From: a virus
Taxonomy: Duplodnaviria > Heunggongvirae > Uroviricota > Caudoviricetes
IMG/VR virus record: IMGVR_UViG_2740892258_000011
Reading direction: 5' to 3' (one strand)
DNA length: 5,156 bases
A program made the translations under genes and the position numbers. The notes beneath the pieces are model-generated. The model made no database searches. It saw only the letters and a program-made list of their open reading frames with translations, and was not told where the DNA came from. Of the stretch, positions 1-5,156 are shown in pieces (the stretch's first letter is position 1; each line of letters begins with the position of its first letter).

Positions 1-631
<631 letters not shown>

Positions 632-870
632 TTACCGCCGCGCCATTTCGCGGATTGCCACAACCGGAAGCGCACGGTCGACGAAAATTTAACGACAGGC
701 TATCTATGAACCAGCTACCTCGCCGTGCGCTTTCGCGTTATGGTCTGACTTTTCAGGGAAATATCCTTTCAGTAAACTGTCAGTGCCGGATGCTCACCCG
801 TGTCCGGCGCACGCACTCCACCTCACCCGTGGAGAACTCCTTAATTACCAACCTTAGCTTCGTTGGTTAG

Positions 871-2672: not shown

Positions 2673-2934
2673 ACACATCCGCATGGCGATGAATGCCTGG
2701 GCGCGTCCTGATGGCGAAAAAGTTCCGGCAGCTGGAATAACCCAGGCTTATTTTGAGTTGGGTATGACGTTTCCTGAACTGTACGACGACAGCCATCCGG
2801 AAGCCCTGGCTCGCAATACCCAGAAAATTTTCCGCTGGATAGAGAAAGACACCCCTGATGCAGTTGAAAAAATTCAGGCGTTGTTACCAGCGATCCCCGC
2901 CACAGGAAGAGACGGTGGTCAGCATTGCCGTTGA
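2656..2934 (+). CDS. YdaT-like / CII-position regulatory protein (92 aa), function uncertain
   Basis: ATG at 2656 preceded by a GGGGGG run; overlaps the cro-like gene by 17 bp. MKIKHEHIRMAMNAWARPDGEKVPAAG.... Family assignment is from memory and position (gene after cro). Confidence 0.45.
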   Translation: MKIKHEHIRMAMNAWARPDGEKVPAAGITQAYFELGMTFPELYDDSHPEALARNTQKIFRWIEKDTPDAVEKIQALLPAIPATGRDGGQHCR

Positions 2935-2956
2935 TCCTGAGTCTCCGGAATCTTTC

Positions 2957-3247
2957 ATGAAACGACCTAAACGTCGCCGCTGGGTTAACGAGAAATACAC
3001 ACGCTGGGTGAAGACACAGCCGTGTGCGTGTTGTGGTAAGCCAGCCGACGATCCCCATCACCTGATTGGTCATGGTCAGGGCGGAATGGGGACAAAATCT
3101 CACGATATTTTCACGCTACCGCTGTGTCGGGAGCATCACAACGAGCTTCATGCGGATCCTCTGGCGTTCGAAGAAAAGCATGGTTCTCAGGTTGATTTAA
3201 TTTTTCGTTTTCTTGATCACGCCTTTGCAACTGGCGTGCTTGGGTAA
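2957..3247 (+). CDS. YbcO-like (DUF1364-type) zinc-binding putative nuclease, 96 aa
   Basis: MKRPKRRRWVNEKYTRWVKTQPCACCGKPADDPHHLIGHGQGGMGTKSHDIFTLPLCREHHNELH.... The pattern CxxC...H.IG.G.GGMGTKSHD...C..HH resembles DLP12 YbcO (HIRLTGLCGTGTKPPD...CSACHDE), which is the same length. Internal ATG chosen over the 2858 start because the N-terminal extension would overlap the upstream gene by 77 bp. Confidence 0.55.
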   Translation: MKRPKRRRWVNEKYTRWVKTQPCACCGKPADDPHHLIGHGQGGMGTKSHDIFTLPLCREHHNELHADPLAFEEKHGSQVDLIFRFLDHAFATGVLG

Positions 3248-3259
3248 AAGAGGTGACTG

Positions 3260-3634
3260 ATGCTCATAGATTTGGTTTTACCTTACCCGCCGACGGTGAA
3301 CACTTACTGGCGACGCCGTGGCAGCACATATTTTATCTCGGAGGAGGGAAAGCGTTATCGCCGGGCTGTGGCGCTTATTGTTCGCCAGCAGCGGCTGAAA
3401 TTAAGCCTGTCCGGAAGGCTGGCGATAAAGGTGATTGCAGAGCCACCGGATAAGCGTCGTCGCGACCTGGACAATATCCTGAAAGCACCGCTGGATGCGC
3501 TGACGCATGCGGGAGTGTTAATGGACGATGAGCAGTTTGATGAAATCAATATCGTTCGTGGTCAGCCAGTATCTGGTGGACGTATGGGGGTGAAGATTTA
3601 CCCCATAATGCATGAAGAGCAGGTCAAAAAATGA
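3260..3634 (+). CDS. rusA: RusA-family Holliday junction resolvase (124 aa)
   Basis: AGAGGTGA RBS before ATG at 3260. ...YPPTVNTYWRRRGSTYFISEEGKRYR...PPDKRRRDLDNILKAPLDALTHAGVLMDDEQ... aligns to E. coli RusA (PWPPSNNRYYRHNRG...PDRRRRDLDNLQKAAFDAL). Confidence 0.85.
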   Translation: MLIDLVLPYPPTVNTYWRRRGSTYFISEEGKRYRRAVALIVRQQRLKLSLSGRLAIKVIAEPPDKRRRDLDNILKAPLDALTHAGVLMDDEQFDEINIVRGQPVSGGRMGVKIYPIMHEEQVKK

Positions 3635-4452
3635 AACTGGAAGATTTACCGAAATACTACTCCCCAAAATCCCCTGGCCTGACCGATGCATCGGCCTCAA
3701 CGTCAAAAGATGCGCTGAGTATCACTGATGTGATGGCCGCGCAGGGCATGACACAGAATCGGGCTGAGATGGGGTTTTCTGCGTTCCTGGGGAAAATGGG
3801 CATCAGTATGAATGACAGGGCGCGGGCAACAGAATTACTGGCAGATTATGCACTCAGTCGGTGCGATCGTGTGGCGGCGTTGAGAAAACTTCCGGCAGAA
3901 ATAAAACCGGTAGTGATGCGCATTATGGCTTCGTATGCGTTTGAAGATTATGCCCGTAGCGCGGCGAGCAAAAAACAGTGCCCTTGCTGTCACGGAAAAA
4001 AATTTATTGAAAGCGAGGTTTTTACAAACAAGATCCAGTATCCGGATGGTAAGCCACCAGTGTGGGCAAAGTGCACAAAAGGCGTGTATCCGTCTTACTG
4101 GGAAGAATGGAAAAAAGTCAGGGAGGTGGTAAAAGTTGCCTGTCCGGAGTGTGGCGGAAAGGGTGAGGTTTCCACCGCCTGTAAGGATTGCCGTGGGCGT
4201 GGTGTCGCCATTCATCGTGAAGAGTCGGTAAAACGTGGTATGCCTGTTATCAGAGATTGCCAGCGTTGTGGTGGTCGTGGCTGTGAAAGGCTGCCATCAA
4301 CGGAGGCATTTAATGCCATATGCAAAGTGACGAGTGCTATCACGCTTGATACGTGGAAAAAATCAGTGAAACGCTTTTACGATACGTTGGTGGTTCGGTT
4401 TGACATTGAAGAGGCATGGGCGGAGCGGCAGTTAAAGAGGGTAACGCGATAG
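3631..4452 (+). CDS. Lambda-family late antiterminator Q with enlarged cysteine-rich region (273 aa)
   Basis: ATGA overlap with the rusA stop. N- and C-terminal blocks match lambda Q: YYSPKSP vs FHSPKSP, ITDVMAAQGM vs GTDVMAAMGM, YAFEDYARSAA vs FAYADYCRSAA, YDTLVV...RVTR vs YDALVV...AVTR. The central region carries four CxxCxGxG-like repeats where lambda Q has two. Confidence 0.8.
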   Translation: MKLEDLPKYYSPKSPGLTDASASTSKDALSITDVMAAQGMTQNRAEMGFSAFLGKMGISMNDRARATELLADYALSRCDRVAALRKLPAEIKPVVMRIMASYAFEDYARSAASKKQCPCCHGKKFIESEVFTNKIQYPDGKPPVWAKCTKGVYPSYWEEWKKVREVVKVACPECGGKGEVSTACKDCRGRGVAIHREESVKRGMPVIRDCQRCGGRGCERLPSTEAFNAICKVTSAITLDTWKKSVKRFYDTLVVRFDIEEAWAERQLKRVTR

Positions 4453-4454
4453 TG

Positions 4455-4500
4455 TTGTTGATTTTTCCCGAATCTGTGGTAAATTTGCTCTAACGATGGG
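4455..4500 (+). promoter_or_regulatory. PR'-like late promoter with qut-like element
   Basis: TTGATT (4458-4463), 16-bp spacer, extended -10 TGgTAAATT (4477-4485). Downstream GGTAAATTTGCTCTAACGATGGG closely matches the lambda PR'/qut sequence GGTAAATTTGACTCAACGATGGG as I recall it. Confidence 0.6.
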
Positions 4501-4534
4501 CGTTTTATGCCTGACGTTAGAAGATTTTTTACAC

Positions 4535-4556
4535 CCCGCCGCCTGGCGGGTTTTTT
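4535..4556 (+). terminator. Rho-independent terminator (tR'-like) about 45-60 nt downstream of the PR' start
   Basis: Stem CCCGCC (4535-4540), loop GCCT, stem GGCGGG (4545-4550), then TTTTTT (4551-4556). Confidence 0.7.
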
Positions 4557-4676
4557 ATGACTGAAATCGCGTCAGTACAGTAAACGCGCTGGTGGCGGTG
4601 AATACCTGTCTTTCAGCTTGCTGGCTTTTTCGACAAGAGTTATTGGTGTGTCACGTTAACCGGAAAAGGAAAAGAC

Positions 4677-4874
4677 ATGCTAAAACAGCAGGATATGACA
4701 GAAACCGCCAGAGTGGTGTTTAATGAATTAAGCGTTACCGACCCGGCGACAGTCGGGGAGATAGCGCAGAATACTTACCTTTCACGCGAACGCTGCCAGT
4801 TAATACTGACTCAGCTGGTTATGGCGGGTCTGGCAGACTATCAGTTCGGTTGTTACAGACGCCTTCCGCAGTGA
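4677..4874 (+). CDS. Small hypothetical protein (65 aa), possible winged-helix DNA-binding fold
   Basis: ATG at 4677 with AAGGA RBS 8-9 nt upstream. The segment VGEIAQNTYLSRERCQLILTQLVMAGLA looks like a recognition helix-turn-helix, loosely reminiscent of PapI/FaeA-type small regulators. No confident homolog recalled. Confidence 0.4.
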   Translation: MLKQQDMTETARVVFNELSVTDPATVGEIAQNTYLSRERCQLILTQLVMAGLADYQFGCYRRLPQ

Positions 4875-4885
4875 AGGCTTTTTTA
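4861..4885 (+). terminator. Rho-independent terminator overlapping the stop codon of the small ORF
   Basis: Stem GCCTTC (4861-4866), loop CGCAGT, stem GAAGGC (4873-4878), then TTTTTTAT. Confidence 0.6.
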
Positions 4886-4901
4886 TTTGTGGTAAATGGG
4901 C

Positions 4902-4932
4902 GGCTGGTGGGTGTTAGGGGCACCCACCAGCC
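4902..4932. repeat. Perfect 12-bp inverted repeat with 7-nt spacer (strong hairpin or palindromic protein-binding site)
   Basis: GGCTGGTGGGTG (4902-4913), ttagggg, CACCCACCAGCC (4921-4932); arms are exact reverse complements. No T-run follows, so not a canonical intrinsic terminator. Confidence 0.6.
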
Positions 4933-5024
4933 ATCTGCTCATGCGTCCGGATCACAAGCAAACCTCAGGCCCACTGCTTTGCGCAAAAGCAGAATGAGCC
5001 TATCAGAGACAGGCTTAATGATCC

Positions 5025-5156
5025 ATGCTTAATACTGTAAAAATATCCAGTTGTGAGTTAATCAACGCCGACTGCCTGGAATTTATCCGGTCGTTACCCG
5101 AAAATTCTGTTGACCTGATAGTCACGGACCCGCCGTACTTTAAAGTGAAGCCTGAG
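5025..5156 (+). CDS. DNA methyltransferase (N6-adenine/N4-cytosine class, DPPY motif), N-terminal 44 codons; truncated by window end
   Basis: MLNTVKISSCELINADCLEFIRSLPENSVDLIVTDPPYFKVKPE. The block SVDLIVTDPPY is the catalytic motif IV, closely resembling YhdJ/phage Dam-like enzymes (SVDLIFADPPY). Weak RBS. Confidence 0.7.
   Translation, partial: MLNTVKISSCELINADCLEFIRSLPENSVDLIVTDPPYFKVKPE

Follow-up and report, generated by a model that had tools for sequence, protein, structure and literature searches.

An inverted repeat ahead of an M.EcoGII-family methyltransferase gene in lambdoid prophages as the apical hairpin of a candidate translational control leader

The stretch analysed here (the window) comprises the 5,156 nucleotides of the viral record IMGVR_UViG_2740892258_000011 (IMG/VR), part of a lambdoid prophage of Escherichia coli, and contains an exact palindrome between a small open reading frame (ORF) and the start of a gene for an M.EcoGII-family adenine DNA methyltransferase. 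Here it is proposed that this palindrome is probably the apical helix, named P, of a leader that exerts two-state translational control on the methyltransferase mRNA, the gene being carried in the late operon of lambdoid phages. In the first fold, the predicted thermodynamic ground state, a helix A would lie beneath P and a second domain would be closed by a helix B, which would bury the nucleotides just 5' of the AUG and block initiation. In the second fold, a helix F would take one strand each of A and B and free the start region. Together with two upstream terminators, the leader would keep the methyltransferase unexpressed in the lysogen and allow its lytic synthesis.

As an earlier note on this DNA had stated, a DNA methyltransferase gene lies downstream of the palindrome; it starts at 5025. 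Its product matches Pfam N6_N4_Mtase (E = 4e-43), the full-length copy in E. coli S88 has 349 aa, and over its full length the protein shares 95% identity with the phage 1720a-02 methyltransferase; by sequence, the gene belongs to the M.EcoGII family and is prophage-borne, non-specificity being attributed to it by family. The phage 1720a-02 enzyme was described by Murray et al. as very similar to M.EcoGII (PMC5778455), a non-specific adenine methyltransferase acting on DNA and RNA, which is deleterious if constitutive and is not expressed in the lysogen (PMC5778455). Homologs in O111 Shiga-toxin-producing E. coli are likewise silent (PMC6602927), and both M.EcoGI and M.EcoGII, close homologs of the window methyltransferase, show no expression in lysogens (PMC5778455, PMC6602927). 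As the product of an M.EcoGII-type gene is deleterious, such a gene would have to be tightly insulated from the late promoter PR', which is constitutively active.

Hairpin P

Comparisons were made across 80 genomic loci encoding methyltransferase homologs, from Escherichia to Proteus, Providencia, Morganella, Photorhabdus and Xenorhabdus, to which 10 phages and 120 viral contigs (IMG/VR) were added. Distinct leaders numbered 55 of a long form, used for hairpin folding, and 25 foldable ones of a short form (Photorhabdus/Xenorhabdus), while 102 variants entered the covariation and promoter-pattern counts. Chance levels for repeats in the window were taken from 300 dinucleotide shuffles.

The inverted repeat consists of GGCTGGTGGGTG (4902-4913) and CACCCACCAGCC (4921-4932), 100% complementary and separated by a 7-nt spacer, which confirms the exact 12-bp palindrome of the earlier note. 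Perfect 12-bp inverted repeats with a loop of 3-10 nt occur once in the window versus a mean of 0.0033 in the shuffles, only one of which (1/300) had any; the repeat is real and far beyond chance. As RNA, P has 14 pairs, including two U.G, and a 3-nt loop. A hairpin folds at the homologous place in 55/55 long-form leaders, and 10 of its 14 pairs are altered on both sides, as where GGCUGGUGGGUG / CACCCACCAGCC becomes GACUGUAAAGGUG / CACCCUUACAGUC in Providencia or GACAGUGAGGAUG / CAUCCCCGCUGUC in Proteus. Counted from the outside in over the 55 leaders, there are 497 Watson-Crick, 41 G.U and 8 A.C pairs, and in 51 of these leaders the hairpin is more stable as + strand than as - strand RNA.

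The G/U-rich 5' arm of P is near-invariant, and the C/A-rich 3' arm drifts by transitions. This is expected of a + strand RNA, because C-to-U and A-to-G changes opposite G and U stay paired; G-to-A and U-to-C changes break pairing, and therefore a - strand RNA would show the reversed pattern. The asymmetric drift argues against a protein-bound DNA palindrome, because such a site would vary symmetrically. The perfect palindrome is a peculiarity of the window lineage, since most relatives carry a 1-nt bulge in the 3' arm; among the homologous phages no absence of the element was seen, the helix being present in all and only its perfect form being lineage-specific. The DNA operator proposed earlier thus finds no support, given the asymmetric arms, the bulge in most relatives and departures that are G.U on one strand. 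The proposed association of the hairpin with the downstream methyltransferase holds, as it is conserved with covariation in a leader that occurs once per methyltransferase gene. From these sequence comparisons, P is best described as a base-paired + strand RNA under selection, not a DNA operator.

In the short-form leaders of Photorhabdus and Xenorhabdus, a hairpin is present in 25/25 distinct foldable sequences, with very different stems; these hairpins have a basal GGUGAA / UUCACC helix and several look like terminators. In six Xenorhabdus loci (L064, L067, L069, L072, L077 and L080), the homologous hairpin lies ~60-100 nt upstream of the methyltransferase, often between an A-tract and a U-tract (GGUGAAAAG...CUUUUCACC, or GAAGCACUGGC...GCCAGUGCUUCUUUUCG). 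The terminator-like short form may be the ancestral state of hairpin P. As an intrinsic terminator in the window P was rejected: the stem is present but AUCUGCUCAUG follows it, and the terminator scan listed 4535-4550 and 4861-4878 only, the U-tract feature being met in some Xenorhabdus short forms. Four IMG/VR contigs (L108, L146, L172 and L191) keep the small ORF, the terminator and the hairpin, whereas a 238-aa ORF (MVVVCSVIMVCSPINIF...) replaces the methyltransferase and the remainder of the leader. Their mosaic junction lies immediately 3' of the hairpin, whose pairing is kept via four G.U pairs.

The leader and its further helices

The leader is conserved no less than the genes on either side of it, with 82-85% nucleotide identity to the window in the Enterobacteriaceae, versus 72-83% for the methyltransferase and 61-86% for the small ORF. 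From Escherichia to Proteus it lies directly upstream of every fetched long-form homolog, and it is missing in 2 of the 78 genome loci with upstream sequence. Erwinia endophytica (L032) and Pantoea sp. (L048) have methyltransferase homologs with neither leader nor small ORF, and these loci are natural comparators for the leader's contribution. The methyltransferase ATG is found 130-133 nt downstream in 114 of 121 IMG/VR leader matches. A profile search (nhmmer) of 1.48 Mb of fetched loci gave one leader per methyltransferase gene and no extra copies elsewhere in this phage DNA, the second matches being weak ones in which the palindromic P4 region aligns with itself on the opposite strand. The leader is thus specific to the methyltransferase gene.

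The leader is non-coding, because it carries single-nucleotide indels and because the upstream ORFs (uORFs) in it vary from 3 to 46 codons. A protein-coding function for the uORF from AUG 4896 was accordingly rejected, neither its length nor its frame being conserved. A cmscan of the whole window against Rfam 15 (E <= 5) returned nothing relevant, the nearest match being P26 on the opposite strand (21.4 bits versus a gathering score of 36, E = 0.41). Prophage anti-sRNAs of the AgvB/AsxR type are small RNAs (sRNAs) of 51-60 nt that lie 3' of PR' and have a conserved 3' region; 4888-5024 has nothing in common with the AgvB, AsxR and EcOnc03 sequences as published. The Pas sRNAs were likewise set aside as the identity of the region, as their sequences and contexts do not match. 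A paper on the pR' regions of Shiga toxin (Stx) phages makes no mention of a methyltransferase, hairpin or palindrome. The motif has no match in Rfam 15, and no description of it was found in the literature searched.

RNAalifold on the raw MAFFT alignment gave only 16 pairs, misled by gap placement in the hairpin, and a register-corrected alignment with N in place of gaps (A3) was used instead; the controls were 500 shuffles and partner strands slid by 1-3 columns. On A3, the whole proposed structure is 89% paired, versus at most 45% with slid partners, and it beats 500/500 shuffles on four of five measures and 499/500 on the fifth. The top pair by mutual information with average product correction, among all column pairs in the 102 leaders, is U4936-A4960 of helix F (columns 66-92), which is UA in 43, CG in 35, AU in 15 and UG in 4 sequences and is 95% paired. 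Helix F scores 0.256 versus 0.094 in shuffles, none of the 500 shuffles reaching its score, and it is mutually exclusive with helices A and B. Covariation thus indicates that F is a base-paired RNA helix under selection on the + strand. In the inner part of domain 2, the helix C pair at columns 100-136 is GC in 39, AU in 4 and GU in 3.

Helices A, B, D and G are predicted. Helix B closes domain 2 and abuts the AUG, with GGAUCAC-AAGC facing GCUU-AAUGAUCC; among nine diverse representatives spanning E. coli to Proteus, 8 have it in their minimum free energy (MFE) structure, and the unpaired probability in the representatives is 0.12-0.28 for positions -12 to -1 before the AUG. In the Morganellaceae, AAG has changed to GGA on the strand common to B and F, and the change is matched on both partner strands. 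Both predicted strands of B also hold a GATC, the Dam site (4950-4953 and 5020-5023), and the second of these, part of the UGAUC next to the ATG, is kept by nearly all long-form leaders. Helix A is 98.6% paired. Helix G would explain the near-invariant TGTG at the leader's 5' end as RNA pairing, in a helix without compensatory support; the position that follows TGTG faces an invariant U and is occupied by A in 25 sequences and by G in 22. As a standalone helix D was rejected, its one double change (L019) being equally explained by A and C, and it is kept only in the alternative fold. The leader also holds several invariant unpaired stretches. At the start site, UGAUCC before the AUG would be a weak Shine-Dalgarno element; we take it to be complementary to GGAUCA at the 3' end of E. 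coli 16S rRNA, a segment that GGAUCAC of the leader (4949-4955) presumably mimics.

Several points weigh against the two-state translational control proposed here. The start region has no canonical Shine-Dalgarno sequence, and for this reason the sequestration of a ribosome-binding site depends on the weak element just named. Helices A and G have no two-sided changes, and their pairing, at 98.8%, is indistinguishable from shuffles, as their columns barely vary. Helix B has 15 cells with two-sided changes versus 12-13 in two slid controls, and uncompensated changes on its 3' strand are tolerated in several sequences. Helix F is in no MFE structure and its enforcement costs 7.7 kcal/mol in the window, where it recruits UGGGC / GCCCA to give a three-way junction; the ground-state picture may therefore be incomplete, since F is the best-supported extra helix, and the missing contributors may be tertiary or pseudoknot contacts or a bound factor. 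P may have a function of its own, because it persists in the four loci where the methyltransferase and the remainder of the leader have been replaced, and also in the short-form leaders. The on/off logic, the trigger and the regulatory effect proposed for the leader are all putative.

Alternative explanations

A function of P on its own is the core of an alternative that we consider unlikely, in which P is an autonomous RNA processing or stability element, an RNase III-like site of the T7 type. P and helix A would form a ~20-bp irregular stem with an asymmetric internal loop (4933-4936), and after cleavage the small-ORF mRNA would end in a protective 3' hairpin, while the downstream RNA, now without AUGGGC, could adopt helix F and be translated. 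This would account for the conservation of both A/B and F and agrees with the predicted stem (6 + 14 bp, 0x4 internal loop), with the retention of P in the upstream module where the methyltransferase has been replaced, and with its persistence alone in short-form leaders, many of them terminator-like or 3'-hairpin-like. However, a 5'-truncated RNA (4933-5050) folded with RNAfold still prefers helix B by about 8 kcal/mol. The RNase III hairpins of T7 R1.1 and of the lambda N leader resemble P in being ~20-bp irregular intercistronic stems with an asymmetric internal loop, whereas P forms part of a longer conserved leader that has other covarying helices as well, and its cleavage by RNase III is putative.

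It is decidedly unlikely, though conceivable, that the leader is a new two-state, possibly pseudoknotted, signal-sensing regulatory RNA found across the lambdoid phages of Enterobacterales, the signal gating translation of the promiscuous DNA/RNA adenine methyltransferase. UGUGR and UUNGCU would both pair to the contiguous UCACA-AGCN'AA, with P in the connecting loop. A switch that responds to a ligand or a protein would be compatible with the exclusive covarying helices, the possible pseudoknot and the invariant unpaired stretches. Candidate signals would be a small molecule, for example S-adenosylmethionine (SAM) or S-adenosylhomocysteine (SAH), a protein of the phage or the host, or methylation of leader adenines by the encoded enzyme itself, the last being conceivable because M.EcoGII methylates RNA.

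The earlier note had suggested that the second copy of the PR' decamer TGTGGTAAAT could be a second extended -10 promoter, with the palindrome as a regulatory operator or hairpin. The decamer does occur twice in the window; the second copy was correctly placed at 4888-4897, after the second terminator (hairpin 4861-4878, then TTTTTT), while the first lies at 4475-4484, one position before the 4476-4485 given for it. The palindrome follows the second copy, although not immediately, as GGGC (4898-4901), four bases, lies between. Exact 10-mer direct-repeat pairs number 23 in the window versus 16.4 +/- 4.9 in shuffles, which puts the repeat at chance level, and the similarity between both decamer regions is limited to 13 nt with one mismatch. 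The first copy is part of a lambda-like late promoter: 4478-4500 is nearly identical to lambda PR' around the -10 and the sigma-dependent pause element AACGATGGG (GGTAAATTTG.....AACGATGGG common to both), the -10 hexamer by alignment with lambda is TAAATT (4480-4485), and the pause-type AACGAT lies at 4492-4497. The hexamer of the second copy is TAAATG (4893-4898, as TG-G-TAAATG), with G at -7 and the critical T missing. Among relatives, the length and sequence between TGTG and ATGGGC vary, the decamer position reading TGTGAAAAT, TGTGGAAAT, TGTGAAAT or TGTGGTAAT. The two copies also assort independently among loci, the leader copy being alone in many (e.g., L010 and L011, which carry other Q modules) and the PR'-position copy alone in some (e.g., L114). 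A partial duplication of the qut/PR' region, also suggested earlier, finds no support, given this independent assortment and the relatives reading TGTGAAAAT or TGTGGAAAT; the decamer common to PR' and the leader is a coincidence.

It is accordingly very unlikely that an extended -10 sigma-70 promoter (TGTGGTAAAT) starts transcription at the base of the palindrome, with the latter bound as an operator by a dimeric protein such as Q or the product of the small ORF. In support of such a promoter-operator, 4888-4898 holds a TGn motif and an A/T-rich hexamer, and TGn-NAnnnT is matched by TGTGAAAAT, the most frequent variant outside the window; the small ORF, found together with the leader in 72 of 88 loci, gives a weak winged-helix match, and a 5'-terminal hairpin could stabilise such a transcript. 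Against it, the TGn-NAnnnT pattern, with A-11 and T-7, is kept in just 29 of the 102 distinct leader variants, and of 47 sequences, 25 have A and 22 have G in the would-be -11 column, as fits A-U / G.U pairing with an invariant U. A promoter consensus scan of 4300-5156 found no promoter, and the silence of M.EcoGI and M.EcoGII in lysogens counts in the same direction (PMC5778455, PMC6602927). Arm asymmetry, the bulge and the one-strand G.U bias misfit a symmetric operator, and 13 loci keep the long-form leader without the small ORF. Restriction-modification methyltransferases controlled by C-proteins, or by their own binding to palindromic operators, are similar in having a small helix-turn-helix-type ORF upstream and an inverted repeat between; here, unlike in those systems, the repeat has the behaviour of an RNA helix, the 13 loci just mentioned do without the small ORF and there is no restriction enzyme partner.

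The arms of P also contain Chi octamers (GCTGGTGG), and the window has three such octamers in 350 bp, the third lying outside P, versus 0.13 expected in shuffles. The palindrome could be viewed as a by-product of selection for back-to-back Chi sites on both strands, serving RecBCD protection, a recombination hotspot or a mosaic joint, a reading that we consider highly improbable. In keeping with it, Chi occurs 10 times on the strand of the late genes in the S88 prophage and 4 times on the opposite strand; among these is a 14-nt palindromic double Chi (CCACCAGCTGGTGG) inside the methyltransferase gene of that prophage (L001 13318-13331). In lambda genetics, the + orientation is active for RecBCD entering from the cos-proximal right end, and the + strand sites here would have this orientation; furthermore, the mosaic junction directly follows the hairpin in four loci and the Chi-bearing arm is the invariant arm in Enterobacteriaceae. 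However, the - strand copy is found in the window lineage only (relatives read CACTCACC, CACCTGCC or the like), the 5' arm is conserved past the octamer, and Providencia, Proteus, Xenorhabdus and others lose Chi but keep the helix by compensatory changes. Chi selection would also leave unexplained the covariation and the 100 conserved nt downstream; Chi may be a real secondary property that adds to the conservation of the 5' arm. Intrinsic terminators and Chi hairpins resemble P in the GC-rich stem with a Chi octamer in the arm; P differs from terminators in that a U-tract is missing (AUCUGCUCAUG) in the window and the long-form relatives and a separate canonical terminator lies just upstream.

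Just as improbable is a leader-peptide attenuation, in which a ribosome on the AUG 4896 ORF would melt A and P, favour F and open the start: AUG 4896 is invariant in 55/55 long-form leaders, most have tandem Trp codons (MGGWWVL), with the stop in the hairpin loop in 20/55, and the overlapping A, F and B resemble the 1:2 / 2:3 / 3:4 helices of attenuators, but this uORF has no Shine-Dalgarno, spans 3-46 codons with frame changes, lacks Trp-Trp in Providencia or Proteus and its AUG in some Xenorhabdus leaders, and AUG 4896 is itself sequestered in helix A, a pairing that explains its invariance equally. The uORF Trp-Trp codons are the Chi octamer in frame. Like trp-type attenuators, the leader has three overlapping helices in series (A, F, B) and an upstream tandem-Trp ORF; unlike in them, the last helix would hide a start site rather than form a terminator, and the length and frame of the uORF are not conserved.

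The prophage module and its significance

The features of the region are listed in Table 1. Positions 4400-5156 have 100% identity to E. coli S88, NU14, APEC O1, ATCC 11775 and others, and DNA matching the Q-to-methyltransferase stretch of the window was found in 2388 of 5426 complete E. coli genomes. The + strand gene order is a Q-type antiterminator, the 65-aa ORF and the DNA methyltransferase; in full-length prophages, tRNA genes are located 3' of the methyltransferase, followed by lysis genes or stx. The window Q protein, of a 273-aa type that bears DnaJ-like CXXCXGXG zinc-finger repeats, does not resemble lambda Q, which is shorter (about 207 aa, from a gene of 624 bp in the lambda record). 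In phages with unrelated Q genes (SfV, phiP27, mEp460, cdtI, Ayreon and Stx2 phages), homology starts at ~4532, and the left edge of the common module is therefore the first terminator; terminator, small ORF, terminator, leader and methyltransferase are a portable module.

Table 1. Features of the Q-to-methyltransferase region in window coordinates
Feature	Position	Strand	Basis or remark
Q-type antiterminator	3631-4452	+	Pfam Antiterm
First decamer copy, in lambda-like late promoter PR'	4475-4485	+	Lambda PR' alignment
First intrinsic terminator (tR'-like)	4535-4556 (stem 4535-4550 and T-run)	+	Terminator scan
Chi octamer GCTGGTGG	4588-4595; 4903-4910; 4924-4931	+; +; -	Octamer match
Small ORF, 65 aa	4677-4874	+	phrog_331; weak TrmB-type winged-helix match
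Second intrinsic terminator	4861-4887 (stem 4861-4878, then TTTTTT)	+	Terminator scan
Structured methyltransferase mRNA 5' leader (long form, ~135 nt)	4888-5024	+	Conservation, covariation
Second decamer copy	4888-4897	+	TGTG 4888-4891 near-invariant; predicted 5' strand of helix G
Helix G (predicted)	UGUGR 4888-4892 with UCACA 4952-4956	+	RNAalifold on A3; basal helix
uORF	4896-4997	+	AUG of AAUGGGCGG; runs through 5' arm of P; 33 aa in window
Helix A (predicted)	AUGGGC 4896-4901 with GCUCAU 4937-4942	+	One-sided changes only
Helix D (predicted, alternative)	UGGGC 4897-4901 with GCCCA 4969-4973	+	Alternative fold
Hairpin P	4902-4932; RNA arms 4902-4915 / 4919-4932	+	Folding, covariation
Helix F	UCUGCU 4934-4939 with AGCAAA 4957-4962; consensus UUCGCU / AGCGAA	+	Covariation
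Helix B (predicted)	4950-4954 with 5019-5023; 4956-4959 with 5013-5016	+	Folding
Helix C, inner helix of domain 2	4967-4970 / 4998-5001	+	Covariation
P4 hairpin	4976-4980 / 4986-4990	+	Alignment, folding
UGAUCC before AUG 5025	5019-5027	+	Putative weak Shine-Dalgarno element
M.EcoGII-family beta-class N6-adenine DNA methyltransferase, start	5025-5156	+	DPPY motif in window

The small ORF is present alongside the methyltransferase in 72 of 88 loci. It has no homology to lambda orf-64, which has the same position, and its structure prediction without alignment (pLDDT 56) was too poor for a fold search. Its stop codon (4872-4874) lies inside the stem of the second terminator, and therefore ribosomes completing the small ORF would melt this terminator. 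In Providencia and Proteus the second terminator is missing, and the small-ORF stop is found ~5 nt before CUGUGAAAAUGGG.

Further upstream, the DUF968 ORF has 129 aa in the window (2858-3247) versus 348 aa in the S88 prophage (L001 9802-10848), and there are no replication genes between the cro-like gene and rusA; the prophage therefore looks like an S88-type deletion derivative upstream of rusA. By sequence, the - strand ORFs at 1-408 and 365-604 (window 1-660) look host rather than phage, and a prophage/chromosome junction may therefore lie near 600-700.

Cis-acting leaders that conceal a start site are a known kind of element; the motif of this leader is undescribed as far as the literature searched shows. 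The long-range pairing of hok mRNA and the sdi structure of the lambda S gene are likewise cis RNA structures at the 5' region of a harmful gene, with alternative pairings, one of them hiding the initiation region, in a phage or plasmid accessory module. The presumed likeness to hok and sdi is functional; the leader differs from them in that there is no sequence or architectural homology, no antisense partner was found, and the gene encodes a DNA/RNA adenine methyltransferase.

Enzymes of the M.EcoGII type, which methylate adenine whatever its sequence context, are in wide use as tools, and many lambdoid prophages, those encoding Shiga toxin among them, carry their genes in the late operon. 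To our knowledge, how these enzymes are silenced in lysogens and switched on in the lytic cycle has not been described. A leader with covarying, mutually exclusive helices would provide a concrete, mutationally testable mechanism and is a new RNA motif for annotation. What had appeared as a second promoter plus operator would thus be an RNA element, which bears on models of Q-independent expression in the Q-to-stx region.

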